This document shows, piece after piece, positions 15,260-56,389 of a stretch of 64,000 nt of DNA. Numbering within the stretch: the first letter of the stretch is position 1; each line of letters begins with the position of its first letter. The stretch is from Halorutilales archaeon Cl-col2-1 (GTDB lineage Archaea; Halobacteriota; Halobacteria; Halobacteriales; Afararchaeaceae). The translations under genes were made by a program, and so were the position numbers. The stretch lies in contig CP169074.1 in the NCBI GenBank assembly GCA_041891055.1, forward strand, positions 1,600,001 through 1,664,000, given 5' to 3'. Below the pieces are notes generated by a model, which saw only the letters and a program-made list of their open reading frames with translations, was not told the DNA's origin and did no database searches.

Positions 15260-15364
15260 TCCCGAGAACTTACGTTCTCGTGTGCACGCGAATCTTCCGA
15301 TTCGCGAACGTCCTCAGAAATCGAAGATTTCTGATGTGCGAACGAGAGCTTGCTCTCGTTAACG
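15260..15364 (+). repeat. Two tandem double-hairpin units (51 + 54 bp) inside the IS left-end stem
   Basis: CGAGAAC/GTTCTCG, CGCGAATC/GATTCGCG, TCAGAAATC/GATTTCTGA, AACGAGAG/CTCTCGTT; each unit CG|T...AACG. Confidence 0.9.
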
Positions 15365-15456
15365 CCCTGTTCGGTTCTCGGTTCCGACTAAGCGTCGGAA
15401 CGCTCGTCCCTCACGGAAAGGGCGGGATTCTCTCGCTGTGTCAAGATAGACGTCGA

Positions 15457-17304
15457 CTAGCCCACGAATCTCGGGTTGTTCGAGAGTAGCCGCGGCGTGT
15501 AGAGGCTCTTTCTCGGCATCTCTCCGATCTTCTCGTCTATCTCGTCTCTGAGTTCCTCGACGGACATCTCCGTTTCGTCGTCTCCCCTGACGCGGAACTC
15601 GATCTCTTCGCCCTCGATCTCTCTGTCTCCGACTACTGCGACGTAAGGTACCCAGTCCTGTTCGGCGGTTCTTATCCTCTTTCCGACGCTCTCGTCCCTG
15701 TCGTCTATGTCGACACGTACCCCGTCGAGTTCGTCGGCGAGGCTCTCACAGTACTCGGTGTGTTCCTCGCCCACGGGTATGAAACGCACCTGTGTCGGCG
15801 AGAGCCAGACGGGCATACGTGGGGTTTCGAGTCCGTCGGCGTTTTCGAGTATGGCACCGAAGGCGCGTTCGACGCTTCCCGTAGGACTGTAATGGAGGAG
15901 TATCGGCTCTTTCTCCTCGTTCTCGTCGTAGTACTCTATGTCGAACCTGTCGGCGGACTCGACGTCGATCTGTACCGTCGGGTTCTCCATCGGACGTCCG
16001 AGAGAGTCTATCGCCGCGAGGTCTATCTTGACACTCCAGTAATGTTTCCTCTCGGGTATTATCTCGACTAAGACGGGCTCTCCTATCTCGTCTACGAGTC
16101 CCTCCACCCAGTCGCGGTGTTCGTCGTAGTACTCCCTCGTCGCCCTCAGGACGCCGACGTAGTCGAGACCCAGGTCGTCGCCAGTCTCGAAGCCGAGGAG
16201 AGCCTGTTTCGCGAACTCGTCCTGTGCCTCCTCGATGTCGCCACACGCCGTGTGCATGTCGGGCATCGTGAACGCACGGAGACGTTTGAGTCCCGTGAGT
16301 TCGCCTCTCTGTTCACGTCTGAACGAGTAGGTCGACATCTCGTATATACGGAGAGGCAGGTCGTTCGAGGTGATATGCATGTCCCTCATTATCGAGAACT
16401 GACCGAAGCACGCCGCGAACCTCAGCATCATCTTTCTACTCCCCGACTCGAACCTGTACTGACGCTCGCCGAACTTCTCGGAGTGTTCGCTTATACAGTC
16501 GGAGCCGAGGTCGTACATGATCGGCGTCTCGACGGGCATTCCGCCGTAGTCGACGACGAGGTCGTTGACGTACTCTATCAGCGAGTCACGGACACATTTG
16601 CCCTTCGGGTACCATCTCAGGTTTCCGGGGTCGCTGAGTTCGTCGTAGTCGACGTACTCCTTCTGTTTCATAGTCTCGACGTGGGGTGGCTCCTCTCCGG
16701 CTCCCGCCTCGATCCCCTCGACCTCGTCCTCTATGAGGCTCACCATCTCGTCGGACGCTTCTGACATCGACTTGAACCCGACGGGGTCGTGTTCTTCGCC
16801 CTCGGGAGTCAGTACGACGAAGTCGCTCTCCTCTTCTTCTTCCTCTTCGTTGTCTTCGGCTTCGGGCTCGGGCTCTATCTCTGTGGGCTCTATCTCACGT
16901 GAGAGCTCCGACATCGGATGTCCCTTACACGATATCTCGAACGCCTTGTACCAGCCGAAGGGCGCTCTCTTGACCTCGTAGCCTACATCGACGAGACGTT
17001 CCTCGATACGTCTGAGAACGTCGACGGCTGTATCGGGATCACCGAGGTCGCTCGAAAGGTGCGCGTAGGGATAGACCATCACGTTCTCGACTTCGAGCTC
17101 GTCGGCTACGTCACGTATCTCGTCCTCCGCCTGTTCTATCACGCTGTCTATGTCCTCGGAGTCGCCCGACTCGACGGCTATGAACGCCGTGAGAGCCTCG
17201 TCGAGACGTCCCTCGGGCTCTATCTCGGACTCGTCCTCGGCGACAGGAGTCTCCTGTTTCGCCTCGTACTTGATGTAGTCCGAATGTATCAGCAGTAGCT
17301 TCAT
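15457..17304 (-). CDS. thrS: Threonine--tRNA ligase (archaeal type with N-terminal editing domain)
   Basis: YPYAHLSS, APFGWYKAF, LRFAACFGQF, GLKRLRAFTMPDMH. Confidence 0.97.
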   Translation of the reverse strand: MKLLLIHSDYIKYEAKQETPVAEDESEIEPEGRLDEALTAFIAVESGDSEDIDSVIEQAEDEIRDVADELEVENVMVYPYAHLSSDLGDPDTAVDVLRRIEERLVDVGYEVKRAPFGWYKAFEISCKGHPMSELSREIEPTEIEPEPEAEDNEEEEEEESDFVVLTPEGEEHDPVGFKSMSEASDEMVSLIEDEVEGIEAGAGEEPPHVETMKQKEYVDYDELSDPGNLRWYPKGKCVRDSLIEYVNDLVVDYGGMPVETPIMYDLGSDCISEHSEKFGERQYRFESGSRKMMLRFAACFGQFSIMRDMHITSNDLPLRIYEMSTYSFRREQRGELTGLKRLRAFTMPDMHTACGDIEEAQDEFAKQALLGFETGDDLGLDYVGVLRATREYYDEHRDWVEGLVDEIGEPVLVEIIPERKHYWSVKIDLAAIDSLGRPMENPTVQIDVESADRFDIEYYDENEEKEPILLHYSPTGSVERAFGAILENADGLETPRMPVWLSPTQVRFIPVGEEHTEYCESLADELDGVRVDIDDRDESVGKRIRTAEQDWVPYVAVVGDREIEGEEIEFRVRGDDETEMSVEELRDEIDEKIGEMPRKSLYTPRLLSNNPRFVG

Positions 17305-17358
17305 AACTCAAGGTTCGACGGACGAGTTAAGTAGCTTCCGTATCCGTCTACTTGTTCC

Positions 17359-18384
17359 TCACCCGGTCTCCTCCTCTAAGACGTCGAGTATCTCGCCGGG
17401 ACCGTGTCTCACGACGTCCGATGCAGGCGCAGTTTCGCTTGCCTCCTCTATGGCGCGTTCGGCTTCCTCCTCTCCCAGACCCGACGTGTTGAGAGAGACT
17501 GCGTCGACGGTTCCCGTAAGGGCTACCTTCTCGTAGGTCTCGGCGACCTCCCCGAGACCGGCTATCTCGAAGTTCTCGTATCCCTTCACTCTCTGTCTCC
17601 CCGCCTCGTGGCACAGTACGAGAGAGTCGGGCATCGAGCCGTGTAGTATCGACGCCGTCACTCCCGAGTAGGCGGGATGAAGTATGCTTCCCTGACCCTC
17701 GACGAAGACGAAGTCCGAGTTGCCCCTCTCGACGACAGTCTCCTCGACGGCTCCCGCCGCGAAGTCGCTCACTACGCGGTCGATGGGATGTCCGCCGCCC
17801 TCTATCATGATCCCCGTCTGTCCCGTAGGTGCGAACTCGGCTTCGTATCCCCTCTCGCGCGCCTCCCCGACTAACTCGACCGCGGTCGTCATCTTTCCCG
17901 TCGAACAGTCTGTTCCGACGGTGAGGACTACGTGAGCCTCGACCTCTCCCGCGACGCCCTCGGCGACAGCCTCGAACTCCGTCTTCCTGACGTCTTCTAT
18001 CTCGGCGTCGTTCTCGTCGGCGAGACGCGAGAACTCGTCGTCCTCACTCAGGAAGTAATGGAGACCAGAGACGACGTCGACTCCGTTTTCGAGTGCGCCA
18101 CGTACGTCGGGTCGCCACGTCTCGTCGAAGCCGCCGCCTATGGGTGCTATGCCTATGTAGAGAGCGTCGATCCCGTGGTCTTCGAGGACGTCTTGGGTCG
18201 ACCCGTAGATATCGACACCCAGACGTGTCTCACCCGACTTCTCGCGGTCGAGGACAGCCACCACCTCGGAGTCGGAGTAACGTATCAGACCGACGGCTGT
18301 CTTCGCGCCGTCTGGGAATCCGCCGTGGGCGAGCACGGCTATTCTCTCGTTTCGGCTTCCGTCTGTGTCTCCGTTATCCCTCAT
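17359..18384 (-). CDS. DUF1611-family P-loop protein (DgcN-like)
   Basis: AKTAVGLIRY, TVGTDCSTGKMTT, PTGQTGIMI, VEGQGSILHPAYSGV. Confidence 0.88.
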   Translation of the reverse strand: MRDNGDTDGSRNERIAVLAHGGFPDGAKTAVGLIRYSDSEVVAVLDREKSGETRLGVDIYGSTQDVLEDHGIDALYIGIAPIGGGFDETWRPDVRGALENGVDVVSGLHYFLSEDDEFSRLADENDAEIEDVRKTEFEAVAEGVAGEVEAHVVLTVGTDCSTGKMTTAVELVGEARERGYEAEFAPTGQTGIMIEGGGHPIDRVVSDFAAGAVEETVVERGNSDFVFVEGQGSILHPAYSGVTASILHGSMPDSLVLCHEAGRQRVKGYENFEIAGLGEVAETYEKVALTGTVDAVSLNTSGLGEEEAERAIEEASETAPASDVVRHGPGEILDVLEEETG

Positions 18385-18676
18385 CGTTGTTGGTGTCTCT
18401 CGCTTTCTCCGATGCCCTTTCATCTTCCTCCCCCTCTTCCTCTCTGAATCTCCTCAGAGCTTCGTTCCACGACTCGGACTCGACGAGTTCGGACTCATGT
18501 TCTGTCTTGATGCCTACGTATCCGCATCTCTCACAGACGTACGACTGTCTTCCGTCGGCGTCCTCAGAAATCTTTGATTTCTCGTGTCTCGGAATCTCTG
18601 ATTCTTTCGTAACGTCGAGGACGTACTCGACGAGGTCGCCTCCGCACCTAGGACAGTTCCTCTCGGTATCTGACAT
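18374..18676 (-). CDS. Small CPxCG zinc-finger protein with an 18-aa palindrome-derived insertion
   Basis: CPRCGG...CERCGY; ESWNEALRRF tail. Confidence 0.8.
   Translation of the reverse strand: MSDTERNCPRCGGDLVEYVLDVTKESEIPRHEKSKISEDADGRQSYVCERCGYVGIKTEHESELVESESWNEALRRFREEEGEEDERASEKARDTNNDEG
18561..18614 (+). repeat. 54-bp double-hairpin unit, in frame
   Basis: CG|TCCTCAGAAATCTTTGATTTCT...GGAATCTCTGATTC...TAACG. Confidence 0.85.
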
Positions 18677-18678
18677 CT

Positions 18679-19656
18679 CTATCTCGGGCTGAACCTTACC
18701 TGCCTCGCGTTCTTCTCCGATCCCTCGACTGTGGTCTCGTCGTCTACCTCACAGACCTCGCCGACCGCCTCCGCGAGTCTGTCCACGTACTCCTCGGCTC
18801 TCTCGTCCCCTCCGAACCCGACTATCTCGCCGTCGGGGAAGACGAGTATCACAGTCTCTCCCGCCTCGACGCGGAGTTCGGGGGTTTCCTCGGGGTCGTA
18901 CTCCGCTTCGACGGGGACGTCCTCGTTGGGCTCGTGCACCGAGAAGAAGACGAGTTCGAGGTCGAGCAAGTCTCCCGTTAGATTGAGCTTGCGCTCGTAT
19001 ATCTCTACTCCGTCGAGCTCCGTCTCGGTCTTTCTCTCTGCCTCTGCTTCGGTATCTTCTGAAAACGGTGGTGACGAAGACGTAGCAACCCAGAACTCGC
19101 CCTCGGGGGTCTCGACGGGTGTCCGTGTGAGGTTGTCGACGCCGTCCGACGACATCGGGTTGTCGTTGTATCCGAGTCTCCAGTCCCACTGCTCGTAGGG
19201 AAGCCTGTCGACGTCCTTCTCCGACTTCTCGACGACAGCGTACGCCGTGTCGCCGTCGACCTCCCAGCCACCCTCGACGGCGTACCCTCTCTGCCTGAGG
19301 TACTCGTTGAGCCCCAGGACGCCGTCGTAACGTGGCTTCCAAGCCATTCCGTTCTCCTCAAATCCTCTCACCACGGCGTCGAAAGCCTCCGCCTCTGACG
19401 AAGACTCCGACGAGTAGACAGATCCCTCTACTGACGCCTCGACCGTGTAGACGTCGCCGTTGACAGTTACGTCCACATCGACGTCGGCACCCGCCCTCGA
19501 CGTCTCGGCTCCGACAGCTTCGACGAACTCGACGAACCCGACATCGGCACCCAGTAGCTCCTCGGCGTCTTCGAGGAGGTCGTCTATGCCGTACCTGAAC
19601 CCTGTCACGAAGACACGCCGTTTTTCGCCGCCTACGTCTATCTCTTTGAGAGTCAC
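18679..19656 (-). CDS. Hypothetical acidic protein with a C-terminal TBP-like repeat
   Basis: Long ORF with host-like codon usage, GTG start; AEYDPEETPELRV...ILVFPDGEIVGFG resembles TBP EYEPEQFPGL...LLFGSGKLVITG. Confidence 0.65.
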   Translation of the reverse strand: MTLKEIDVGGEKRRVFVTGFRYGIDDLLEDAEELLGADVGFVEFVEAVGAETSRAGADVDVDVTVNGDVYTVEASVEGSVYSSESSSEAEAFDAVVRGFEENGMAWKPRYDGVLGLNEYLRQRGYAVEGGWEVDGDTAYAVVEKSEKDVDRLPYEQWDWRLGYNDNPMSSDGVDNLTRTPVETPEGEFWVATSSSPPFSEDTEAEAERKTETELDGVEIYERKLNLTGDLLDLELVFFSVHEPNEDVPVEAEYDPEETPELRVEAGETVILVFPDGEIVGFGGDERAEEYVDRLAEAVGEVCEVDDETTVEGSEKNARQVRFSPR

Positions 19657-19756
19657 TGGCGGAGATACGTCTTTGTCAGATAAAAATCTGAAGGTTGGGT
19701 GTCTCCGTGGAAAAGAGAGATACCGACTGAGATGAGTTAGATCCGGATACCCATCC

Positions 19757-20689
19757 TTATCCTCTTTCTGACAGTCTGCCGTACGTCCATCTCCCTAGCT
19801 TGTAAGCCACGAAGACGGGAACCGCGACCACGACGAGGTAGATGAGGAACTGGATCGTCCGGAAGAGTATCTCGACGCCTCCTGTGACTGTTGTGATAAG
19901 TATACTAACGATGTTGTCGACTGTCTGCCGCACCTCGTTTCTGAACCTGTCGCCGATGTCGTCGGGGACTATCTCGGGCTGTCTCCTCTCCCTCACCTCT
20001 ATCCTCACCGTGGCGTACTCACTCCTCTGGCGTTTCTGTGCAAGATCCGACCTGTATCTACTCATCTTCTCCTTGACTTCGAGCTCCTTATCGGTGACCT
20101 CCATCAGAAGATCGAGCTTCTCCGCGGTCGCGTTCATCTCGGAAATCTCCGACCGCGTCGACTCGTACTCCCGAAGTGTCCGGTTGAGTATGTCGAGCTC
20201 GGTCGTTTCCCTCTCAATCGAGAGCCTGTAGCTCCTAACTTCGTATTCCTCGACCTCGAACTCGTCTCTCGTACTTTCGACGAACTCCTCGAAGTTCTCA
20301 GACGGCACTCTCGCTGTCATACGCGCGGTGAGATAGAGATTCGACCGTCTCCGTGAGCTCTCCTCAACGTATCCTCCTGACCCCTGTGTGAGATCTCTCA
20401 GCCTCGAGACATCGTCGTCCAAGCTCTCCGACTCGATGCTCATATCCGCCTCTTGAACCTCGACGTACTCGCCCGCGCTCGCTCCCGCGTCCTCACCCAC
20501 CCCTACCGTCTCAGGAGCACCTCCAAATCCCGTCTGTTGTGACGGACTCCCACCGGTCATCCCGAATCCGAAGAGGACTGTCGAAACGGCTCCGACTACC
20601 AGAGCTAAGACGAGAACAACTGAGACTAAGACTGAGACGGCGGCGATCCTATTTTCGGACAGCCAGTGTCTGACTTCGTTGAGGTTCAT
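19757..20689 (-). CDS. DUF4349-like membrane-anchored coiled-coil protein
   Basis: N-terminal TM, GGYVEES, ARVPSENFEEF, coiled coil, YATVRIE, C-terminal TM. Confidence 0.75.
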   Translation of the reverse strand: MNLNEVRHWLSENRIAAVSVLVSVVLVLALVVGAVSTVLFGFGMTGGSPSQQTGFGGAPETVGVGEDAGASAGEYVEVQEADMSIESESLDDDVSRLRDLTQGSGGYVEESSRRRSNLYLTARMTARVPSENFEEFVESTRDEFEVEEYEVRSYRLSIERETTELDILNRTLREYESTRSEISEMNATAEKLDLLMEVTDKELEVKEKMSRYRSDLAQKRQRSEYATVRIEVRERRQPEIVPDDIGDRFRNEVRQTVDNIVSILITTVTGGVEILFRTIQFLIYLVVVAVPVFVAYKLGRWTYGRLSERG

Positions 20690-20733
20690 ACGACCGAGTT
20701 ACCCAGAGACGAATCAAGTAACTTTGGGTGGTT

Positions 20734-21957
20734 TTAGACAGATAGATTCTCGATGCCTTTCTCGTACTCGGTGAGGTTGTCGTAGCCGTCGTCTCTCACG
20801 ACGACGAGATCCTCGACCCTCACGCCTCCGATGTCCTGGTAGTAGAGCCCCGGCTCGACAGAGACGACGTGCCCCGCTTCCAACTCGCCCCCTCCCGACG
20901 ACAGGCGCGGCATCTCGTGTATGTCGAGACCGACGCCGTGTCCCGTCGAATGTATGAATCCCTCCTCAGCACCCTGTCTCTCGGTGTCGTAACCCACCTC
21001 CTCGTACGACTCACAGACTGCGTCGTGTACCTCTTCTCCTGTCACCCCTGCGCCCTCGTCGAGTACGTCGAACGCCGCCTCCTGTGCCCTCACAGTCGCC
21101 TCGTACATCTCGCGTACCTCGTCGGTCGGCTCGCCCTTGACAAATGTCCTCGTCATGTCGGCGTGGTACTTGAGACGTCTCGGAAATATGTCGACTATTA
21201 CGGGCTCACCCTCTCTTATCACGCCCGAACCCCTCGAATGCGGGTCAGCTGTTTCCTCTCCCGAGGCGACTATAGACTCGTCGAGGTCACATCCCGCCCT
21301 TATGAGGTCGACCTCTATCTCTGTCCTCACCTTCTCGGAGGTCAGAGCCTCTCCGTCTGTTAATCTTTGATTAACAGGCTCATCAATCTTCGATTGATGA
21401 ACGTCGTGAACGAGTCTTCCGTCCTTGACCTCGGCTTCCCTCAGGAGTCTCTCGGCGACCTCCATCGCGTTCTCGTTCGCTCTCTGTGCCGCCTTTATCT
21501 TCCTTATCTCCTCGTCGGTCTTTACCGCCCTCGTCCCCTCTATCCCGTCGTCTACCGCGGTGACCTCGAATCCCCTCTCACGGAGAGCCTCGGCGGAGTA
21601 AAGGAAGAAGTCACGCGGTACACATACCGACTCGACGCCGTACTCTTCGAGGAACGACGCCGCGACCTCTATCTCGGCGTCCTCGCTCCCTCTTATGTCC
21701 CCTGTGGTGTACTCGGCTGTCGACCTCACCTCGTCGGCGAGTGACTCCTTCTTAGCGCGGCTATACTCCAAGGGTGAGACGAGTAGAACGGTCTCGTCTT
21801 GCGTCCTCAGAAGGCTGAAGGGATCGGGTGCCTCGAACCCCGAGACGTAGTACATGTCGCTGTCGTCCGACGAGTCGGTGCGGAGGTAGGCGTCACAGAC
21901 CTCGGTCTCGACGGCTTCGTCTATGCTTGCAGTCCTCCCACTATCTCGGTCTGTCAT
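20734..21957 (-). CDS. Xaa-Pro aminopeptidase (M24) with a 16-aa palindrome-derived insertion
   Basis: DPHSRG, VDIFPR, YHADMTRTF, HSTGHGVGLDIHE, SVEPGLY, GVRVED. Confidence 0.93.
   Translation of the reverse strand: MTDRDSGRTASIDEAVETEVCDAYLRTDSSDDSDMYYVSGFEAPDPFSLLRTQDETVLLVSPLEYSRAKKESLADEVRSTAEYTTGDIRGSEDAEIEVAASFLEEYGVESVCVPRDFFLYSAEALRERGFEVTAVDDGIEGTRAVKTDEEIRKIKAAQRANENAMEVAERLLREAEVKDGRLVHDVHQSKIDEPVNQRLTDGEALTSEKVRTEIEVDLIRAGCDLDESIVASGEETADPHSRGSGVIREGEPVIVDIFPRRLKYHADMTRTFVKGEPTDEVREMYEATVRAQEAAFDVLDEGAGVTGEEVHDAVCESYEEVGYDTERQGAEEGFIHSTGHGVGLDIHEMPRLSSGGGELEAGHVVSVEPGLYYQDIGGVRVEDLVVVRDDGYDNLTEYEKGIENLSV
21356..21403 (+). repeat. 48-bp double-hairpin unit, in frame
   Basis: CG|T-CTGTTAATC-TTT-GATTAACAG-GCT-CATCAATC-TTC-GATTGATG-AACG; two perfect stems. 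Confidence 0.93.
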
Positions 21958-22034
21958 GCTACGGAGTTCCGCGTCTTCGGAGTTAATCTTACTGTTACCG
22001 TCATTAATTTGGTTCCGACACGTCTACTCAGTGT

Positions 22035-23009
22035 ATGGCAGAGTTCCCCACCCGACGTATGAGAAGGCTGAGACGCGACGGAGTACGAGAGATGGTAGCC
22101 GAGAACTCGGTCTCGACTGACGACCTCGTGGCTCCCCTCTTCGTCGACGCGACGACTGACGAGCCCTTCGAGATACCCTCGATGCCCGGAATATACCGTC
22201 ATCCCCTTGACGACGTCCGGGAGAAGGCACGTGAGATAGACGAACTCGGCATACCCGCTGTGATACTCTTCGGTGTCCCCGAGTCGAAGGACGCCGAGGG
22301 ATCGCGTGCTTACGCAGAAGACGGAGTCGTACAGGAGGCGGTGAGATGTATCAAGGACGAGACCGACCTTCTCGTGGTGACAGATGTCTGTATGTGTGAG
22401 TACACCCACCACGGACACTGCGGGGTGATCGACGACGAGGAGGAGACGGTCGACAACGACGCCACACTTCCCTACCTGTCGAGAATCGCTGTCTCACACG
22501 CCGAGGCGGGAGCCGACATAGTCGCCCCGAGCAGTATGACGGACGGGATGGTCACAGAAATACGTCAGGGACTCGACGACGCGGGCTACACAGAGGTAGG
22601 CATACTGTCGTACGCAGTCAAGTACGCTAGCTCCTTCTACGGACCCTTCCGTGACGCCGCCGACTCGGCACCTGACTTCGGTCACAGGCGCGACTACCAG
22701 ATGAACCCCGCCAACTCACGTGTCGCAGCCGAGGAGGCGAGTCTCGACGTCGAGGAGGGTGCCGACATGCTGATGGTAAAGCCCGCCCTCCCCTACTTGG
22801 ACGTAGTCTCAGACGTGAGAGACAGCTTCGACCTTCCCGTCGCTGCTTACAACGTCTCGGGAGAGTACGCGATGCTCAAGGCTGCGGATCAAAACGGCTG
22901 GTTAGACGCGCGTGAGACCGCAATGGAGTCGCTCTTATCGATAAAGAGGGCGGGCGCCGACCTCATAATAACCTACTTCGCCGAGGAGATCGCGCGCGAC
23001 CTCGACTAG
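22035..23009 (+). CDS. hemB: Porphobilinogen synthase
   Basis: [44 protein letters not shown]. Confidence 0.97.
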
Positions 23010-23039
23010 GTTTAAGTTGGAGGCGTTGTTATACGGCGT

Positions 23040-23402
23040 ATGGCATCGAACAAGGACAAGACGGTCTCCTTCCGCGTCTCTGAGGAGACCTTCGAGACTC
23101 TCTCTGAGATCTCCGAGAGGCGTGATACTACACTCTCTGACATATTCCGTCAGTACGTCGACAGCCTCGTGAGCCACGACGGTGACGTGTCTGTGGTTCC
23201 CGACGACTCCGTAATCGAGGAGGTCGACGACGACTTCCCGCCTAAGGTCAAGGTCTCGAAGGAGGTTCTGAGGGAGAACGAACGTCTCGAACTCGAAAAC
23301 CGACATCTCAGGGAGCGTCTCGAGGAGTACGAGGAGTACGTCGAGAAGCTGAGAGAGAGACACGACGGCGAACACGTCCGTCTCGGAAAGGTCGACAACT
23401 GA
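23040..23402 (+). CDS. Ribbon-helix-helix (CopG-like) protein with C-terminal coiled coil
   Basis: NKDKTVSFRVSE...TLSDIFRQYVD; ERLELENRHLRERLEEY. Confidence 0.8.
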   Translation: MASNKDKTVSFRVSEETFETLSEISERRDTTLSDIFRQYVDSLVSHDGDVSVVPDDSVIEEVDDDFPPKVKVSKEVLRENERLELENRHLRERLEEYEEYVEKLRERHDGEHVRLGKVDN

Positions 23403-23427
23403 AGACAAGAAAGAGAACCAACTACAG

Positions 23428-25074: not shown

Positions 25075-25083
25075 ATTATTATC

Positions 25084-25494: not shown

Positions 25495-25506
25495 GTCTTT
25501 ATTACT

Positions 25507-26367: not shown

Positions 26368-26388
26368 ACCCGAAGAGACACGGGTCGT

Positions 26389-34085: not shown

Positions 34086-34177
34086 TCTGAAAATCTCCGA
34101 TTTTCATGCTCATCAATCGAAGATTGATGAACGTTTGCAAATCTTTGATTTGCAAGCACGTCAATCGAAGATTAACG
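34086..34177 (+). repeat. Two tandem double-hairpin units (48 + 44 bp), intergenic
   Basis: TGAAAATC-TCC-GATTTTCA, CATCAATC-GAA-GATTGATG, TTGCAAATC-TTT-GATTTGCAA, AATC-GAA-GATT; CG|T...AACG ends. Confidence 0.92.
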
Positions 34178-34187
34178 TACGGTCTGT

Positions 34188-45659: not shown

Positions 45660-45732
45660 GACAAAGGAACAGTATTATACTCGTCCTACACTATTACCGA
45701 CACATGACAGACCAGATCAGAGGGGATACAGA

Positions 45733-47687: not shown

Positions 47688-47696
47688 ATAGTTAAG

Positions 47697-48017: not shown

Positions 48018-48068
48018 AACTCGGCTTCGTACCGCGTCTTTAAACTACTTTCTCATGGACATACGTCT

Positions 48069-48719
48069 ATGACGAGCTTCACCGACGACGAGATAGACTC
48101 CTTTCACCGTCTCGTGAGATCGAGACGTGACATACGGCGTTTTCGGAGCGATGAGGTTCCCGACGACGTCTTGGAGAGGATGCTCGATGCCGCCCACCAC
48201 GCCCCGAGCGTGGGCTTCTCACAGCCGTGGGACTTCGTTCTCGTCGAGGACGACGACAAGAAGTCAGAGATAAAGGACGTCGCCGAGCGTGCCATAAACG
48301 CAGCCGAGGAGGCGTACCGAGAACCCAGAAAGTCGGAGTTCGGGCGTCTCAAGCTTGAAGGCATAGAGGAGTCCCCCGTCAATATCTGTGTGACGTGTGA
48401 CCCGACGAGGGACGCTCCCCACGTCCTAGGAAGGAACTCGATGAGACGTGCCGACGTCTACTCGACGTGTCTCGCCGTCCAGAACCTCTGGCTCGCCGCA
48501 CGTGCTGAGGGAGTCGGAGTCGGCTGGGTTAGCTTCCTGTACCCCCACGAAGTCAGGGAGATACTCGGTATACCCCACCACGTCGAGCCGATCGCGTATC
48601 TGTGTGTCGGATACCCCGAGGAGTTCCCCGACGAGCCGACGTTACAGAAGGAGGGATGGCGAGAGAGGATCGACCTCGAAGACCTCGTCCACAGAGGGTC
48701 GTGGGACACGACCGACTGA
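48069..48719 (+). CDS. bluB: 5,6-dimethylbenzimidazole synthase
   Basis: RRDIRRF, APSVGFSQPWDF, LKLEGI, QNLWLAARAEGVGVGWVS. Confidence 0.93.
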   Translation: MTSFTDDEIDSFHRLVRSRRDIRRFRSDEVPDDVLERMLDAAHHAPSVGFSQPWDFVLVEDDDKKSEIKDVAERAINAAEEAYREPRKSEFGRLKLEGIEESPVNICVTCDPTRDAPHVLGRNSMRRADVYSTCLAVQNLWLAARAEGVGVGWVSFLYPHEVREILGIPHHVEPIAYLCVGYPEEFPDEPTLQKEGWRERIDLEDLVHRGSWDTTD

Positions 48720-48987
48720 CGACACAGACGCCGGTACAGACACAGACAAAGGAGATTAATACCTCGGCGTCGTACTCTCCTGTGCGCGTCATAAATCCCT
48801 CCGTTGACTACGCACTCGCGCTGGATGAGACGGGGAGAACCCTGACGTGCGATATGCCCCGCACGAGGGTTCACCGGAGCCGACAGAGGACTACCAGAGG
48901 ATGAAGCTTCGGAGTTAGTGTACGGGGCTATACCTTACTAACTTTTCCCAGTCTTAATGTTTCACTGCTAACTATACCGACTACGGA

Positions 48988-50094
48988 ATGGGACTTCAGG
49001 AAGAGATACAGGAGATAGAGGAGGAGATCGAGAACACTCCCTACAACAAGTCGACAGAGAAACACATAGGACGTCTCAAGGCTAAGCTCTCGAAGCTCAA
49101 GGACGAGCTCGCACAGAGGGAGTCGGGGAGCGGCGGCGGTGGGGGATACAACATACCCAAGACGGGAGACGCGAGGGTCGTTCTCGTCGGATTCCCGAGT
49201 GTCGGAAAGTCGACTCTCATCAACCAGATCACGAACGCAGAGAGTGAGACGGGGTCTTACGGCTTCACTACGTTGGAGGTCGTCCCGGGTATGCTCAAGT
49301 ACAGGAACACCGACATACAGATACTCGATGTCCCGGGTCTGATAGAGGGTGCGAGCGAGGGACGTGGCGGAGGAAAGGAGATTCTGAGCGTCGTGAGATC
49401 CGCCGACCTCCTCGTCTTCATGGTTGATGTCTTCGAGCCCGAACAGTACAAGACACTCCACGACGAGCTATACGAACACGGAATACGTATAGACGCCTCG
49501 CCTCCGCGTGTCAAGATAAACAGGAAGGACAGGGGAGGCATAGACGTGAGGAAGTTCGACGACGTCGAGATAGACGACGAACTCGTCGAGAGTGTCTGTG
49601 AACAGCACGGCATAGTCAACGCGTCTGTCGTCATAAGGGAAGACGTCACAGTCGACGAACTCAACGACGCCATCCTCGACAACCGTGTCTACGTCGACTC
49701 CGCCGTCACCGTCAACAAGATGGATCTCGCCGACCCATCGACTGTCGAGAGGACACGTGAGAAGCTCTCGGAGTACGGGGTCGAAGACGCCGTCGGGATA
49801 AGCGCGAAGGAAGGCAAAGGACTTGATGCGTTCAAGGAGATGGTTTTCGAGTCGCTCGATCTCATCAGGGTCTACATGAAGCCACAGGGCGGCGACCCCG
49901 ACTACGACGAGCCGATGGTTGTCAGAGAGGGTGCTACCGTCGGTGACCTCGCCTCGAAGATACACGGCGAAGCCGAGGAGCGTTTCCGTTACGCCAAGGT
50001 CTGGGGAGACAGTGCCAAACACGACGGTCAGCAGGTCGGCGAGGATCACGTCCTCAGCGACGAGGACGTCCTCTCAGTTATAATGAAGAAGTAA
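48988..50094 (+). CDS. DRG/Rbg-family OBG GTPase with TGS domain
   Basis: HIGRLKAKL, GFPSVGKST, FTTL, DVPG, NKMD, VWG.SAKH.GQ.VG. Confidence 0.94.
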   Translation: MGLQEEIQEIEEEIENTPYNKSTEKHIGRLKAKLSKLKDELAQRESGSGGGGGYNIPKTGDARVVLVGFPSVGKSTLINQITNAESETGSYGFTTLEVVPGMLKYRNTDIQILDVPGLIEGASEGRGGGKEILSVVRSADLLVFMVDVFEPEQYKTLHDELYEHGIRIDASPPRVKINRKDRGGIDVRKFDDVEIDDELVESVCEQHGIVNASVVIREDVTVDELNDAILDNRVYVDSAVTVNKMDLADPSTVERTREKLSEYGVEDAVGISAKEGKGLDAFKEMVFESLDLIRVYMKPQGGDPDYDEPMVVREGATVGDLASKIHGEAEERFRYAKVWGDSAKHDGQQVGEDHVLSDEDVLSVIMKK

Positions 50095-50121
50095 AAAAGT
50101 AAGCTGTCTGACTACGCTGTA

Positions 50122-51000
50122 CTACAGAAGGCCCGCCTTCTGGAGGAGCATGAGGTCGTCGGTGTCGAGTGTCTCGCCCTCCTTGAACTTCTCGTAGACC
50201 TCGCGCGCCTGTTCCTTCGCGACTTCCTTTTCCTTCTCCTTCTCGGATTTCTTCTCTTTCTCCTCCTTCTTGTCGAGCTCACGGAGGCGTTTCTGAACCT
50301 TCACGAAGTTCTCGTGGTGCTCGTCGGCGGCTTCCTGAGCCTCGACGAAGCTCTCGTGCATTTCGTCGGCTTCCTCACGCACCTCGTCAGCCTTCCTGTA
50401 CGCCTCTATCATCTTGTCGTGGTGCTCCTGGGCGTCGTCGGCGGCTTCGAGAACCTTCTCGTGAGCCTCACTCGCCTTCTCACGTGCTTCCTCGGCTTCC
50501 TCACGTATCTCGTCTATGTCGCCTGTGTCCTCCAGCTTCTCCTTCTTCTTGTTGTACTTCTCGCGGAGGTTCTCTATCTTGTCTATGAGCTCGCTCTCCT
50601 CGTCGGACTCGAGAACCTCTGTCTGCTGTCTGAACTCAAGCTTCTCTATCTTGTCCTTGAGCTCCTCGAGAGACTCGTCGTCGTCCATGTCGAGCTCCTC
50701 CTTCTTCTCCTCAACCTCGTCGAAGAGCTCGTTAGCCTTCTCGTTGAGCTCGTTCCTCTTGTCCTTGTACTCCTGAACCTTCTCGTTGAGATCGTCTCTC
50801 TTCTCACGGTGCTCCTGAGCCTTGTCGACAAGGTCACGAGCCTTCTCGTTGAGCTCGTTCCTCTTTGAGGCTCTCTCACTCGCAGTCGAGTTGAGCTCGT
50901 TCCTGCGGTCTCTCAGCTTACCCGCGAGCTTGATCAAGTCTCCCTTGTTCTTGTTCTGAATCTCTTCTTCGTCTACTTCGATTGTTTCTATCTCAGACAT
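50122..51000 (-). CDS. Conserved archaeal coiled-coil protein (COG1340-like)
   Basis: KRNELN/KRDDLN repeats, LEFRQQT, KFKEGETLDTDDLMLLQKAG. Confidence 0.88.
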   Translation of the reverse strand: MSEIETIEVDEEEIQNKNKGDLIKLAGKLRDRRNELNSTASERASKRNELNEKARDLVDKAQEHREKRDDLNEKVQEYKDKRNELNEKANELFDEVEEKKEELDMDDDESLEELKDKIEKLEFRQQTEVLESDEESELIDKIENLREKYNKKKEKLEDTGDIDEIREEAEEAREKASEAHEKVLEAADDAQEHHDKMIEAYRKADEVREEADEMHESFVEAQEAADEHHENFVKVQKRLRELDKKEEKEKKSEKEKEKEVAKEQAREVYEKFKEGETLDTDDLMLLQKAGLL

Positions 51001-51316
51001 GTCTGATCACTCTGTTCTTATATGTTTGTCTGCGGTACACATCGGCGTAGCTGTTCGTGTCTGTGCTCGTACGTAACGTGTGGGTAGAACAGTCTCCCCT
51101 CAGTCTGGTCTGTATCCGCGTCAGCTCCAGTTATACGAGAACGTGTCGTGTTCATCTATCTATGCGCCGAACGTGTTCCGTTCTACACCAGTATAAACGT
51201 CTTGTGACTTTAAAAGTTTCGCATACTAATAGTGTGAAAAGAGTTGCCATGAGGACTGTTATTACCTCACACATCCACTCGAAAAGAGATATACTGTCTC
51301 GGAACTACGTTACGGT

Positions 51317-51736
51317 GTGTCGAGACTCACGAAGAGGGCTTTTCGCGTCTTAGTCCTCGAACTCGTCGTAGCTCTCGTCTTCGTAGCCGTCTTCGTCGGA
51401 GCACCCGGATTAGTCGCAGACAGACTCGGCGAGCACGCCGAGATACGTGTCGTGAACCGGGACACCGTCCCCCACAGTATCGATATCTCTGTCGAGACAG
51501 CCTCCGAAACCGTGATCTTCGATAGGTCTTACACGGTCTCCTCAAAGTCGTCTGAACACACCGCAGACACGAGAGTAGGACCGGGTAGCTACGTCCTCAC
51601 CGTCGAGTCGGACGTCTCGGAACGCGTCACACGTAACTTCGAGGTCGACTGTAACCCGACCGTAGTAACCATAGTAGTTTCCGAATCACAGAGTACGAGA
51701 GACAGAACCGATGTCCGTCTGACTCGAGCCTGCTAA
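51317..51736 (+). CDS. Hypothetical membrane-anchored Ig-like protein
   Basis: N-terminal TM then beta-rich region (PGSYVLTV); GTG start. Confidence 0.6.
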   Translation: MSRLTKRAFRVLVLELVVALVFVAVFVGAPGLVADRLGEHAEIRVVNRDTVPHSIDISVETASETVIFDRSYTVSSKSSEHTADTRVGPGSYVLTVESDVSERVTRNFEVDCNPTVVTIVVSESQSTRDRTDVRLTRAC

Positions 51737-52989
51737 AGTATGTAGGGAGCCGCGGCTCCCACTCCACCTCCGAGTGCCGCCGTGAAGTTGACACCCGTGT
51801 TGTCCATAAGACGCCCTTCGACTGTCGCTCCGAGTACCGAGTCGATGTGTGCACCTACGACGCCGCCGACTACGACGAATCCAGCCGTCTCTACGGGAAC
51901 TACGCCGAGAGCCGACGAGAAATACGCGACCAAGACGCTCGCTGCGACAGTCACCACCTCTCCCTGAACTGTCACACCGCCGTCAGTGCCCGGGGGAACC
52001 TTCTCGAACGTGGTTATCAGACGTGGTGTCTCGTGAACTGAGCCGATCTCACTCGAAAGCGTGTCGGCGGTCGCGGTCGCTAAGCTTCCCGCGAAGACGA
52101 GTTTCGATATCTCCGCGGTTGGGGATCCGAGGTCGAGACCGAGAGCAACGACGGCTACGAGACCCACGGCAGAGTTAGCTAGAACGTTAGTAGCTCCTCG
52201 CGCCCCGCCATTCTCCTCCGCGACGCCGAGATCTATCTTGTCGTTGTATCTGTACCTCGTAGACGCCGCTCCGAGGACGAAGAAGAGCATAAGCACGCCG
52301 AGCCATCCGAAGCCTCCGACCACCGAGGTAACGAAGCCAACGACTGTTCCCATAAGTGCCCCTGTGACGCTCGCGGCTCCCATATAGTACGAGACTACTC
52401 CGAAGGCTGTGACTACGACGAAGGCAACCCCAAGATCCGTTCCCGCAATCTCGGTTTCGAGACTGTGTGTGACCCAGACCGCTGCGGCTGAGCTTACCGC
52501 CATGTACGATGTGTTGCCTCTACTGAGTCTCCGTTTGCCCTCCGACAGACCGAATCCGACCGTCGCCGCTACGAGAACCCCCACGGACACTACGAAGAAA
52601 GCCTCCGAAGTAGATACTCGGATAGGCGAGACGACGACTCCCCAGACGCCCGCTCCGACCCCCGCAGTTACGAAGGCTACGGGAGACCAGACGCTCTTTC
52701 TCCCCAGAGACCGAACCGCGAAGTCGCCGGCTACGACTCCGAGTATAGAGGCGGTGACTCCGATCCGAGTCAGACCTAGGAAGTAGGACAGAAGGGCTAT
52801 TCCGAACGCGGCGAATCCGAGGGACATGATGTCGTCGGTTACTTGGGTTTCCCAAGACGGAGACCTCGACGCGAAGCCCGCGAAGCCTATGAGAGCGAAC
52901 GGAAGGAGAGACAGCTTTCCAAGATAAGGTGATACGAGTCCCAAGACCCCGATAACAGCGTACAGTCGTGTCTTGGGAGGCAAGCGCAT
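51733..52989 (-). CDS. DUF92/TMEM19 membrane protein
   Basis: RGATNVLAN, ATATADTLSSEIG, PGTDGGVT, DSVLGAT. Confidence 0.92.
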   Translation of the reverse strand: MRLPPKTRLYAVIGVLGLVSPYLGKLSLLPFALIGFAGFASRSPSWETQVTDDIMSLGFAAFGIALLSYFLGLTRIGVTASILGVVAGDFAVRSLGRKSVWSPVAFVTAGVGAGVWGVVVSPIRVSTSEAFFVVSVGVLVAATVGFGLSEGKRRLSRGNTSYMAVSSAAAVWVTHSLETEIAGTDLGVAFVVVTAFGVVSYYMGAASVTGALMGTVVGFVTSVVGGFGWLGVLMLFFVLGAASTRYRYNDKIDLGVAEENGGARGATNVLANSAVGLVAVVALGLDLGSPTAEISKLVFAGSLATATADTLSSEIGSVHETPRLITTFEKVPPGTDGGVTVQGEVVTVAASVLVAYFSSALGVVPVETAGFVVVGGVVGAHIDSVLGATVEGRLMDNTGVNFTAALGGGVGAAAPYIL

Positions 52990-53026
52990 GTAGAAGCTAT
53001 ATAAGCCGTCGCACTTTATAATTCCG

Positions 53027-53686
53027 ATGAACGTGTACTTCTACGACCGTCTCCTCGAACGTAAGGTCAGAAGACGTGGTACCCCCGACCACGTAGCCGT
53101 AGTCACGTCCGGCTCCGACTTACTCGACGGTGGCTTCGAGACGGTATCCGACCTCCTATGCTGGTTCTCCGAACTCGAGGTCGAACGAGTCAGTCTCTAC
53201 GTTAGTTTAGCCGATTCCGACGACCCCGCCGAGATATACGACGGCATTTCACGTCTCGACATTCCAGGCGTCGGTGTCGATGCAGTCGGGGACAGTCACG
53301 GTCACGGGGACGGAACTTCGACCCACAGACCCATAGACATAGAGGAAGCCGGTGGGTCGGAGGACGAGACCCGAGTCAAGGTCTCAGTCGGACTCGGCGG
53401 ACGCAACGAGTTCGTCGGTGCACTCAGACAGATGGCGCGCGAGGTAGAGGACGACGAACTCGATCCCGATGACGTAGACGAGGAGACCATAGAGAGACAT
53501 CTCGTCTTCAAGGGTGAGCCCGACATGATGATAACCGGAAACGACCGACTCTCCGACTTCATGATCTGGCAGTCGGTCTACACAGAGCTATACTTCGCCG
53601 ACTTCTCGTGGGACTCGCTCAGGAAACGTGACCTTCTACGTGCATTCAGGGAGTTTCAGGACAGGGAGAGACGGTTCGGAAAGTGA
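53027..53686 (+). CDS. Divergent cis-prenyltransferase (UppS-like) family protein
   Basis: PDHVAVV, GGRNEF, EPD, RLSDFMIWQSVYTELYF, RERRFGK; lacks the DGNRR catalytic motif. Confidence 0.85.
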   Translation: MNVYFYDRLLERKVRRRGTPDHVAVVTSGSDLLDGGFETVSDLLCWFSELEVERVSLYVSLADSDDPAEIYDGISRLDIPGVGVDAVGDSHGHGDGTSTHRPIDIEEAGGSEDETRVKVSVGLGGRNEFVGALRQMAREVEDDELDPDDVDEETIERHLVFKGEPDMMITGNDRLSDFMIWQSVYTELYFADFSWDSLRKRDLLRAFREFQDRERRFGK

Positions 53687-53702
53687 TCATGATCAAGCAA
53701 AC

Positions 53703-54611
53703 TCAAGGGAACTCCCTCAGGCTCTTGTGTATGTCGAGACCCGCCTTCGCGCCCTTTCCGACACCTATCGGGATCTGGTTGTTCTCGTCTGTGACGTCTC
53801 CGACGGCGTAGAGACCGTCGATGTCTGTCTTAGCGTCGTCGTCGATCACAGCATAGCCCGAGTCGTTGAGTTCGGCTCCGAGGCTCTCGAGTATCCCGTT
53901 GTTGACCCTACCGCCTAGCATCGCGAAGCCTCTGTCGAACTTCCGCGACTCGCCGTCTTCGAAGACGAGACGTTCGAGGTGTTCGTCTCCCTCCGCACAA
54001 GCTATCTCCTTCTCGACGACGTCTATCCCGTTCGCCTCGATCTTCTCGGAGTACTCTTCGCTCAACTCGGGAGTCTCGCCGTTCGTGAGGAATGTGACGT
54101 CGTCAGTGAAGTTGAGGAGAATGAGTGCAACGACTGCGGCGTGGTCGTCGTCGCCTAAGACGAAGACGTCCTCGTCTATACATAGATGGGCATCACAGTG
54201 GAGACAGTAATGCACCTCGTGTCCGTTGAAACGTCCGAGTCCCGGAACCTGGGGAAAGACGTCCATCATTCCCGTCGCGACGACGAGTGCACGCGAAGTA
54301 TAGACGTCACCGCTGTCCGTCTCGACGTGGAAGACGCCGTCTTCCTTCGTCGCGTCGACAGTCTTGTCGTGGACGAACTCGCCTCCGTGTTTCTTCACCT
54401 GGTCTATGCCGACCGACTGTAAGTCGTCGCCCGTGTTGTCGTCGGTCACTCCTATGTAGTTGTGGACGTGGCGTACCTGGTTTATACGTCCGCCACCCTT
54501 GTCTATCACTAACGTCGGATGGTTGAGACGTGACGTGTAGAGTGCGGCTGAGAGTCCGGCGACTCCTGCGCCTATCACGATGTTGTCGTAGTCAGGATCA
54601 GTCTTCTGCAT
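53703..54611 (-). CDS. Thioredoxin reductase-like FAD/NAD(P) oxidoreductase
   Basis: IGAGVAGLSAA, VATG, YCLHCD, GLYAVGD. Confidence 0.9.
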   Translation of the reverse strand: MQKTDPDYDNIVIGAGVAGLSAALYTSRLNHPTLVIDKGGGRINQVRHVHNYIGVTDDNTGDDLQSVGIDQVKKHGGEFVHDKTVDATKEDGVFHVETDSGDVYTSRALVVATGMMDVFPQVPGLGRFNGHEVHYCLHCDAHLCIDEDVFVLGDDDHAAVVALILLNFTDDVTFLTNGETPELSEEYSEKIEANGIDVVEKEIACAEGDEHLERLVFEDGESRKFDRGFAMLGGRVNNGILESLGAELNDSGYAVIDDDAKTDIDGLYAVGDVTDENNQIPIGVGKGAKAGLDIHKSLREFP

Positions 54612-54682
54612 CTGTGTTATACTTGAAGCGTCGTAAAGTTACAGTTACTGTTTTAGATCCGACCGGGTAACGCGAACCCCAC

Positions 54683-55555
54683 TCAGATATAACTCCATAT
54701 TCCGAGTTTATACAGCAGAATTCCTACGCCGATAATGACTCCGACTAATCCGGGGTAGAACAGCGACTTGTACGACGACTTGAACTTCTTCTCTATCTCC
54801 TCTTCTCCGTGGTTTGAAAGTATGAAGAGGTCACCGCCGCATTCTGTCAGTTTCGTGGTAGTCCCTTCTCTGTCATCCTCCATGCGTGCGCTCCCTTTCG
54901 TATCCGCACATCCGAGCGCGTAGACTGCTTCCCCCGGCTCGATCACCCCCTCCATGTACCGACGTGTACCGTGTTTGGTTCCGATGTCGACGGCGTTCAG
55001 AGGAGTGTCCGTATCCTCGTATAGACCGTGTTTCTCATGTAACTCACGTATGTTCGTAGGGGTTTCCTCTGAAGGGTCAAGCTCGTACTCCTTGGGGAAA
55101 GACCTAAACTCGATCAGTGCGTCGTCCATCCGAATACCCTGGTTCGCGCTTATGCCCGTTGTCTGAGTCCACTTTCCCGCCGTATCTGTCCTCGAAATAG
55201 ATTCGACGGTTATCTCCCCCGTGTCGTCCTCTATAACGAACTCTGCAACCTCGATACCACGTGCCACTTCGCGCCACGTCGACCTGTCGCCCCGCTCGTC
55301 CCACTCCTCTATCTTCCAAGCGGTTGCGAGAGCTTCACGTTCGGTAACGGGGGCTCTGATCGTTTCAGAACAGTCTGACTCGACCGCGGTTCCCTCGACT
55401 TCTACTGTCTCGGGCGGATCGACTACACCCACGTCTACCGTCCTGACCGACTCCATGTATCTGTAGATCCCCCGCCGTTTCCAGCCCTTGTACATCCCAA
55501 CTATTCCAACTGTGATAACAAGAGAAGTCGTGATGTATGTGATCTCATTTATCAC
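54683..55555 (-). CDS. Membrane protein with GIDE-like central domain
   Basis: N- and C-terminal TMs; VEVEGTA, RRYMEGVIEPGEAVYALG; AT-richer flanks. Confidence 0.65.
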   Translation of the reverse strand: MINEITYITTSLVITVGIVGMYKGWKRRGIYRYMESVRTVDVGVVDPPETVEVEGTAVESDCSETIRAPVTEREALATAWKIEEWDERGDRSTWREVARGIEVAEFVIEDDTGEITVESISRTDTAGKWTQTTGISANQGIRMDDALIEFRSFPKEYELDPSEETPTNIRELHEKHGLYEDTDTPLNAVDIGTKHGTRRYMEGVIEPGEAVYALGCADTKGSARMEDDREGTTTKLTECGGDLFILSNHGEEEIEKKFKSSYKSLFYPGLVGVIIGVGILLYKLGIWSYI

Positions 55556-55671
55556 GTCATCGGTTTTGATATACAGGAGTTAAGAATTTTCCCGTAATGG
55601 AGTAGTTATGGTTCGGATATTCTATAGATATAGAAGAGGTAAGTGACGGAGGTTAAGTTCAGACTGCTTAA

Positions 55672-56190
55672 GTCAACAACCCCGCCCTACTTCGCTCGGG
55701 GCTTGCGCCCACTCGCTCGTGGAGGGCGTATGCTGAGGCTCCCTCAGCATGCTCGTGAATCTTCGATTCACGAACGGGGCTTGTCCGTGTTCTCTCCCTC
55801 GACCGCAGTACCGTTCCGTACTGCGTGGGCGGTCGAACCGCGCTCAGGGTCATTGTTCCGGACTTCGGGGCGCGTTCGGAAATCTCCGATTTCCGAGCCA
55901 TCCAGATCAAAGATCTGGAGACGTTGACTGGTGCCCATCCATCCGAACAACTGTTGGCTCGGATGGATGTGCTTATAGGTAATCTCCGAAGTCCAATAAG
56001 TGTACGGCTTCCTCCCCGCCCTACTGCGCTTCTTGTCCGCGTAAGCGGACTGCGGTGTGTTGAAAATCGGAGATTTTCATACGTATGCGAATCTCTGATT
56101 CGCAACACTCCTTGAGGACGTCCCGAGATCTCCGATCTCGCGGGCTCAGAAATCTCAGATTTCTGAACGGGGACTCCGCCTGCACAAGGT
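55672..56190 (-). mobile_element. Non-autonomous IS200/IS605 derivative (PATE-like) retaining left end, omega-RNA-like region and right end
   Basis: Right end ACGGACAAGCCCCG...GGGCGGGGTTGTTGAC; left-end hairpin CCCCGCCCT...GAGGACG/GGG; no real ORF; four hairpin units nested inside. Confidence 0.75.
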
Positions 56191-56249
56191 TGAAGTCGAA
56201 CCGTCGATGAGACTATTTCTATTCACGAGTCCGCAAAATCAGAGATTTA

Positions 56250-56270
56250 TGGGCCAGCGCGGATTTGAAC
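56250..56270 (-). repeat. 21-bp direct repeat of the tRNA-Ile 3' end
   Basis: TGGGCCAGCGCGGATTTGAAC identical at 56250-56270 and 56390-56410. Confidence 0.95.
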
Positions 56271-56389
56271 TACGGTCACTTAGGTTCCCTAATTCAAATC
56301 CGCTTGTCCCATTCGTTTCCTCACTGCGTTCGGTCTCTCATGGGCCATTCGTAAATCGAAGATTTATGAGTCCGCAAAACCGAAGGTTT

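Follow-up and report, generated by a model that had tools for sequence, protein, structure and literature searches.

The 64,000-nt stretch of the chromosome of Halorutilales archaeon Cl-col2-1 analyzed here (the window) carries units of about 50 bp, each built from two adjacent DNA hairpins, that belong to a family found in many copies across the genome. The family is real, has been recently active, and resembles repetitive extragenic palindromic (REP) sequences and Rickettsia palindromic elements (RPEs); its units are very probably copies of a mobile, gene-less element that inserts at CpG. Coordinates without a prefix are those of the window, and C1 is the chromosome of the source genome (G000; 2.06 Mb, 99% complete). 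Our main comparison is with a congener, G001—a second species of the same genus with about 93% DNA identity—in which synteny with the window is kept at about 86–97% identity.

An earlier, sequence-only reading of the window had listed about eleven such units. All 11 loci consist of two adjacent perfect or near-perfect hairpins with stems of 7–11 bp and loops of 3 nt (rarely 4 nt) closed by C..G. Nine fit the proposed layout, in which the unit begins after CG with a T, continues with a hairpin, a short GC linker, and a second hairpin, and closes with AACG: eight lie on the minus strand (15260–15310, 15311–15364, 18561–18614, 21356–21403, 34086–34133, 34134–34177, 55729–55776, and 56121–56169, the last a canonical unit), and the only one in the opposite orientation is that at 55873–55921, as had been stated. 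The remaining two, at 56058–56107 and 56341–56389, are variants.

The double-hairpin family is confirmed as an observation, and chance is excluded as its source. The window contains 16 AATC-N3-GATT motifs; over 100 dinucleotide shuffles the mean is 0.55, and no shuffle gives 16. Genome-wide the motif occurs 194 times (174 on C1, 20 on C2, and none on two small contigs); a perfect stem of at least 7 bp, extending beyond the 4-bp core used for selection, is present at 150 of these sites, and perfect stems of 8–9 bp are present at 124. A generic hairpin scan of C1 (stem at least 7 bp, loop 3–4 nt, at most one mismatch) found 184 adjacent hairpin pairs versus 8, 7, and 5 in three dinucleotide shuffles, while pairs of ATC-N3-GAT cores numbered 83 versus 1 in a mononucleotide shuffle. 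C1 holds 129 hairpin arrays: 94 doubles, of which a few are chance pairs within genes, 11 triples, 18 fours, one five, four sixes, and one eight. The units first listed were thus real, but the picture was too small—they belong to arrays of up to eight hairpins.

The hairpins also behave as paired structures. Covariation was assessed in eight of the nine canonical units; the unit at 15311–15364, in which the hairpin order is swapped so that the non-AATC hairpin comes first, was misaligned by MAFFT and omitted. In this set 96.9% of cells are paired versus 79.5% after shuffling (none of 500 shuffles reach the observed value), which bears out the claim that the stems co-vary. Double changes occur at 8 of 16 stem pairs; the values for slid controls are 21–46%, and the structure was derived from these same eight units. 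As single-stranded DNA (ssDNA), either strand of a unit folds as well as the other (−12.9 to −14.5 kcal/mol; z scores −4.2 to −7.6). Three-nucleotide loops are carried by 274 array hairpins, and among the 256 such loops closed by C..G, 233 read (G/A)NA or its complement (chance 25%), in agreement with the GNA-type loops first noticed in the window.

The anatomy of a unit was counted in a strict set of 48, read on the strand that has the G.T pair in the outer stem of the first hairpin (the reference strand). A canonical unit follows a C and runs GTTC-R-NN-AATC-loop-GATT-NN-Y-G(A/T)GC, then C or CA, a second hairpin of 7–9 bp, and (G/A)AC, after which the host continues with G. Units are 49 bp long in 25 cases, 48 bp in 13, and 47–54 bp in 5; in the other 5 the end could not be placed. 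The description of the units as conserved in structure rather than in sequence holds for the second hairpin, which varies widely (16 inner-stem types), but less so for the first, which is fairly conserved: its 13 variants differ at just two or three compensated positions. Four-nucleotide loops occur in two first and six second hairpins. TYY predominates among first-hairpin loops (33 pyrimidine-rich versus about 13), and RRA or GTA among second-hairpin loops (35 purine-rich versus 11). The first hairpin bears CGTT(C), and the GACG at the other end is the complement of CGTC. Given this opposite loop polarity, a unit is the same type of tagged hairpin taken twice, in inverted orientation, its CGTC and CGTT tags pointing outward.

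The same ends define the target. A C stands immediately to the left of 46 of the 48 units (as part of GAC in 21), and 38 units close with AC before a G, with GACG directly behind the second hairpin in 18; excision would therefore leave a single CG, as had been proposed, and the insertion point lies within a CpG, usually between the C and the G of (G/A)ACG. Because a unit ends in (G/A)AC, its own target, each insertion recreates the site, which accounts for head-to-tail arrays. It also bears on the possibility of a conventional MITE (miniature inverted-repeat transposable element), mobilized by a DDE transposase with duplication of the CG dinucleotide. Such an element would explain why several insertions are flanked on either side by CG or CGTC—by CGTC in the case of those in an M24 peptidase gene and an aminotransferase gene—and DDE transposases are present in the genome. 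However, the units have no terminal inverted repeats beyond the AATC core common to both hairpins and no target duplication of fixed length; no sequence is repeated at the C1:1843458 insertion, and the apparent 2–4-nt repeats flanking other units arise because the unit end matches the target. We regard a MITE as very improbable.

Evidence for movement comes from empty orthologous sites, which the sequence-only reading had expected of a non-autonomous mobile element and which G001 does provide for every window unit that fits the layout above. A clean one is at the M24 gene, where 21353–21403 is replaced by 3 bp. The 92-bp interval 34088–34179, holding the tandem pair of units between convergent genes (34086–34133 and 34134–34177, the second with one mismatch in its second hairpin), is replaced by 1 bp. 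Around the 54-bp intergenic unit at 18561–18614, whose second hairpin is imperfect, the 59 bp of G000 (18559–18617) correspond to 5 bp in G001; this site has diverged and its junction is not clean. The 1.56-kb G000-specific segment at 54659–56220, which includes the unit at 55729–55776, is represented by 61 bp. The two units at 15260–15364 lie in an insertion sequence (13825–15444, minus strand) that is itself missing at the G001 site, with an exact junction and no duplication; a copy of this insertion sequence on G001 contig C16 joins window position 15262 to 15363 and lacks both units.

Five additional G000/G001 regions revealed further differences. Only G000 has the insertions at C1:1774564 and C1:1843458 (48 bp each), C1:246246 (49 bp), and C1:1837302–1837389 (about 99 bp); G001 has a 48-bp gain of its own at C1:1726875, and the site at C1:914990 is occupied in both genomes, but by different units. 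On independent contigs from metagenomes the M24 site is found in either state: the filled allele is on one contig of run X1, and the empty allele is on a 12.3-kb contig in runs X2 and X3 (one study), which skips 21353–21403 and has TCT between, like G001.

A further suggestion, that stems are actively diversified, is not supported: units common to G000 and G001 differ by single substitutions that break pairing, and no loop flips were seen among seven stretches compared between the two. The sole compensated change is in a single hairpin at 56225–56250, next to an incomplete copy of the 3′ end of tRNA-Ile; the G001 change makes that copy identical to its neighbor, and so looks like copying from the neighbor.

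These comparisons also bear on whether the units are mobile at all. Host regulatory hairpins under selection—terminators, RNA-stability sites, or protein-binding sites—might be expected from the many copies behind genes and tRNAs, and between genes in tandem it is the reference strand that is sense, 11:1, a figure based on crude ORF (open reading frame) calls in which several pairs belong to one array. Nevertheless, presence differs between the congeners, about 93% identical in DNA, at every one of the window sites described above, array content differs at one site, fixed copies decay through pairing-breaking mutations, and some copies lie in frame in housekeeping genes. Individual copies may have acquired a secondary role, though a host-regulatory origin of the family is contradicted and in our view barely credible.

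Some copies lie inside genes. The M24 (Xaa-Pro) peptidase gene (20734–21957, minus strand; Pfam Peptidase_M24, 4e-48) contains the 48-bp unit at 21356–21403 in frame, as 16 codons; exactly these 16 residues are missing in the G001 protein (96% identical) and in four orthologues from other families. An aminotransferase is interrupted by a 48-bp unit in G000 only. In the archaeal SAM synthetase a 54-bp unit adds 18 residues in both congeners and is missing in five other families, and a Hel308-type helicase has three hairpins in both congeners with 16 further residues in G001. Units are in frame in all four genes. The gain of about 99 bp noted above falls in an integrase-like ORF. Copies in genes persist when their length is a multiple of three and free of stop codons; since the modal length of 49 is not a multiple of three, the in-frame copies would be survivors of selection. 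Units spanned by PolB, phosphodiesterase, thioredoxin, and tnpB ORFs were left out of the proven insertions, and a hairpin pair in argininosuccinate synthase (C1:1850689), which is not family-like and is kept in G001, was removed from the list. A separate observation concerns the family B DNA polymerase: its 1679-residue frame in G000 (C1:641649–646685) has Hint/intein and LAGLIDADG matches, and a hairpin pair near residue 1171 is possibly within an intein.

A second setting is the left end of insertion sequences. The element hosting the units at 15260–15364 is of IS605 type and carries only tnpB: its ORF at 13901–15235 encodes TnpB (Pfam OrfB_IS605 and Cas12f1-like TNB; NCBIfam guided_TnpB, 170 bits), one of 28 TnpB-like matches in the G000 genome. 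Elements of this family are GC-rich at both ends, with a left-end hairpin TCCCGCCC-TGAA-GGGCGGGA and a right end of the CCCCGTCG type. The left-end hairpin is uninterrupted at C1:429335 and C3:7273; elsewhere, units enter it directly after CACTCCCG, at C1:1615252 (the two window units, which form one array; that at 15260–15310 has a first hairpin of canonical form when read on the minus strand), C1:937422 (a single unit), and C1:915288 (about 400 bp of array). A fuzzy left-end search listed 27 rows, mostly chance, of which just the five exact CACTCCCG matches were used; among these five, all located in a recognizable left end, the hairpin is split after that motif in three. A second, different insertion is nested in the same hairpin: at 15365–15444 and C1:937480–937550 the TGAA loop is split by a 47-nt insert with a small GTTCCGAC...GTCGGAAC hairpin, which is missing at C1:429335 and C3:7273.

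This association raises the question of whether the units are themselves "terminal-only" palindrome-associated transposable elements (PATEs), that is, IS605-type remnants whose core has been deleted between two near-terminal palindromes. Possibly mobile 52-bp forms of this kind are described in Haloquadratum (Dyall-Smith 2011, PMC3119063), and the units are of similar size, have no inverted terminal repeats, and in many cases lie beside tnpB. The resident insertion sequences nonetheless have ends unlike those of the units, with GC-rich hairpins and a target of T(A/G)TC at three junctions rather than the units' (G/A)AC before G. The units are inserted into these ends and do not form them, and the G000 genome yielded no element of full length whose ends are of AATC type. 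A true PATE does exist in G001—a 410-bp internally deleted tnpB insertion sequence (L019, contig C24, 1174–1583) that keeps both insertion-sequence ends and an uninterrupted palindrome, and for which G000 has the exact empty site between C1:166264 and C1:166265. A terminal-only PATE origin is accordingly improbable.

How the units move is the less certain part of our account. We propose a miniature gene-less element moved as ssDNA by the resident TnpA, a statement which, taken whole, we hold tentatively and put slightly short of an even chance. The unit would move as folded single-stranded DNA, and a Y1 (HUH) transposase, provided in trans, would cut and join it between the C and the G of GACG, beside the base of a hairpin; compensated stem variants would arise while the unit is copied, not in place. 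The sole identified candidate is the IS200-type TnpA at C1:979011–979418. Of the Y1 or RAYT (REP-associated tyrosine transposase) genes suggested at first, no RAYT is present in the genome (the best NF047646 match, 25.1–26.1 bits against a cut-off of 80, is the IS200-type TnpA itself), and the single Y1 transposase is this same canonical IS200-type TnpA (C1:979038–979397; NF033573, 159.5 bits). A six-hairpin array stands directly behind this sole tnpA, filling the left-end palindrome of its insertion sequence.

Several observations are consistent with such an IS200/IS605-like single-strand route: the lack of terminal inverted repeats, the lack of duplication at C1:1843458, the left-end insertions, and the array at tnpA. 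Units outside genes and less than 700 bp from tnpB are co-oriented with it 13:1, counts that are not independent since some tnpB copies are paralogous. TnpA, which was looked for in five other genomes (G001, G093, G165, G219, and G040), is present in the first four, all with raised counts.

Other observations weigh against the resident TnpA. The GC-rich hairpins and T(A/G)TC target of the tnpB insertion sequences differ from the AATC hairpins and (G/A)ACG of the units, and the tnpA-bearing copy reads as a GC-rich outer palindrome with its interior filled by AATC-type hairpins. IS200/IS605 ends carry like-oriented hairpins, whereas the two hairpins of a unit are mutually inverted. The array beside tnpA lies within a left-end palindrome, as in tnpB-only copies, so its adjacency says little, and the co-orientation with tnpB could equally stem from transcription or from tnpB paralogues duplicated together with their units. 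Along C1, unit orientation forms blocks but does not track the pair of GC-skew arms that flank the sole orc1/cdc6 origin (1.52 Mb), a comparison that by itself decides neither way. TnpA is also common in haloarchaea with few units, which makes its co-occurrence non-discriminating, and it was not found in G040, a genome 76% complete with 25 pattern matches. With one IS200-type TnpA and no RAYT, single-strand HUH transposition is something we infer.

The same mobile element may instead be moved by an enzyme not yet recognized—a serious possibility, if one we would sooner bet against. It would fit the mismatch of hairpins and target with the tnpB insertion sequences, the failure to find a RAYT, and the 25 matches in G040, although that genome is far from complete. 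Precedents exist: the CGTC-tagged REPs are described as having no associated transposase gene (Di Nocera, De Gregorio, Rocco 2013, PMC3733652), and mobilization of the short mobile repeats (SMRs) of Haloquadratum is called "enigmatic", with strain-specific insertions and almost no intact tnpA (Dyall-Smith 2011, PMC3119063). On the other hand, no candidate gene emerged. The sole non-tnpB ORF between two arrays (C1:937562–938530; 323 residues, with weak Cas4 and PD-(D/E)XK matches under curated cut-offs) was considered and rejected, its left array belonging to the left end of a neighboring insertion sequence and its right array preceding a tRNA. A bolder version of the unrecognized-enzyme account, and in our judgment an unlikely one, is an archaeal hairpin element with its own ssDNA enzyme that inserts at the foot of any hairpin followed by C and G, and that preys on mobile DNA. 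If this were true, the element would split the left-end hairpin to which the TnpB/IS605 transposase binds and might disable those elements; it would also pile onto itself, follow tRNA genes, and be tolerated in frame within essential genes of a streamlined 2-Mb genome.

Beyond the genus the family thins out. A pattern of two ATC-N3-GAT cores 12–22 bp apart, scanned over 401 genomes of the order, gives 83 sites in G000 and 59 in G001, with 32, 25, and 20 in the next genomes; most genomes have 0–10, a background due partly to Ile-x-Asp codons, and a reversed-pattern control gives 0–4. True look-alikes occur at low copy in other families, for example in G151, where we considered whether the hairpin pairs belong to IS605 elements as their ends; their neighbors are ordinary genes (AdoHcy hydrolase, amidohydrolase, T2SS-F) and not tnpB. 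A first-hairpin variant was found in five other genomes, namely Halorutilus salinus F3-133 and four Halobacteria metagenome-assembled genomes (MAGs), and 6 of its 12 copies there stand directly behind a tRNA 3′ end, as at the tRNA-Ile of the window. In MAGs L091, L094, L096, and L099, units adjoin runs of tRNA 3′-end fragments in both orientations, an indication that related genomes have undergone integration and excision at tRNA genes more than once. A scan of viral contigs with one common first-hairpin variant returned no stretches.

In the window, the tRNA-Ile gene (56390–56463, minus strand) is abutted at its 3′ end by the variant hairpin pair at 56341–56389, which starts immediately after the gene and is also present in G001. 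The other variant, at 56058–56107, belongs to a separate subfamily with a TACGTA linker and no GTTC/GAGC frame, which recurs at C1:1509916 and in G001. Nearby, the G000-specific segment at 54659–56220 lies next to the incomplete copy of the 3′ end of tRNA-Ile (about 56250–56300). Besides a GIDE-domain ORF (54686–55579), it contains repeat fragments with further copies on C2 and in G001, and it may represent either a small integrated element or a repeat mosaic. Rfam at gathering thresholds reports only tRNAs in the window, three in all; ARAGORN additionally predicts a tRNA-Leu(CAG) at 4621–4707. Indels of 12–18 bp between G000 and G001 at 18372, 26414, 60096, 60192, 63339, and other positions are copy-number changes of short tandem repeats and are not part of the hairpin family.

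These findings matter in several ways. Small hairpin repeats that are mobile but lack a gene of their own have been much studied in bacteria (REP/RAYT, RPE). For the question of what moves such elements, which CGTC-tagged REPs and Haloquadratum SMRs pose as well, the genus is an unusually clean system: a 2-Mb genome with one TnpA and no RAYT, about 130 arrays, gains on both sides of the congener pair, and empty sites that are exact to the base. Essential archaeal enzymes—SAM synthetase, the Hel308-type helicase, the M24 peptidase, and the aminotransferase—tolerate 16–18 extra residues derived from selfish DNA, which is relevant to the annotation and interpretation of "lineage-specific inserts" in archaeal proteins. 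Finally, units invade the ends of TnpB/IS605 elements at a single constant position, and this may restrict how far such elements spread.

The novelty of the family is less than was first supposed, as SMRs, PATEs, and CGTC-tagged REPs and RPEs are close precedents; however, it belongs to none of them. None of the papers we consulted describes this family in Halobacteria, with SMRs and PATEs compared by description only, and the main text of the Halorutilus salinus genome paper contains no occurrence of "repeat", "palindrom", "transpos", or "MITE". REPs, imperfect palindromes of 20–40 bp, and REPINs (REP doublets forming hairpins) are thought to move as ssDNA by a Y1 HUH enzyme encoded by a single gene. 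Like them, the units are high-copy hairpins in inverted dimers and form arrays resembling bacterial interspersed mosaic elements (129 on C1). Unlike them, the units have no GTAG tag (their ends are GTTC and (G/A)AC before G), no RAYT, and copies within genes; moreover, the arms of a REPIN pair with each other, which the two hairpins of a unit, being unlike in their stems, cannot do. RPEs are longer, at about 100–150 bp, and their host is an obligate intracellular bacterium. We know of no report of RPEs in tandem arrays or targeting insertion-sequence ends. They share with the units the presence of selfish palindromic DNA in frame in genes that still function, as summarized for Rickettsia in PMC3733652.

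The CGTC-tagged REP superfamily, which includes Rickettsia RPE-4 and RPE-6 and Neisseria dRS3, comes closest in construction (Di Nocera, De Gregorio, Rocco 2013, PMC3733652). As described there, its members are short hairpins whose stems measure 8–9 bp and which bear an unpaired tag of CGTC type at one of their ends; they form inverted dimers, at times 1–2 bp apart, have heterogeneous stems and loops within a family, and include copies within genes that add 20–30 residues. The units are alike in these respects, with 16–18 residues added in genes. Those families have no associated transposase gene; in the present genome an array does stand behind the only tnpA, but within the left-end palindrome of that insertion sequence, as in tnpB-only copies. 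The differences are that loops are 4–5 nt in those families and 3 nt here, that one of the two tags here is CGTT, and that clusters are rare there and common here. At their untagged end the bacterial hairpins have a three-base tail (consensus CCA); the units have a linker of C or CA after GAGC, in which no such tail was identified. The families listed in that account come from bacteria only, in five phyla, and no archaeal family is mentioned among them.

In habitat and behavior, the SMR-A elements and PATEs of Haloquadratum walsbyi are nearest (PMC3119063). As presented in that work, both are haloarchaeal, transposase-free, and without target duplication; SMR-A inserts within near-terminal palindromes of IS605-type elements, as the units do, and terminal-only PATEs, at 52 bp, match the units in size, possible mobility, and lack of inverted terminal repeats. 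In contrast, SMR-A is about 110 bp long with prominent inverted terminal repeats, whereas the units are 47–54 bp and have none, and the ends of PATEs match resident IS605 hairpins and their target, which unit ends do not. Where passages of that paper mention in-frame indels in genes, short tandem repeats alone are concerned, rather than SMRs or PATEs. The family described here thus works like CGTC-tagged REPs, REPs, SMR-A, and PATEs, yet is a member of none.

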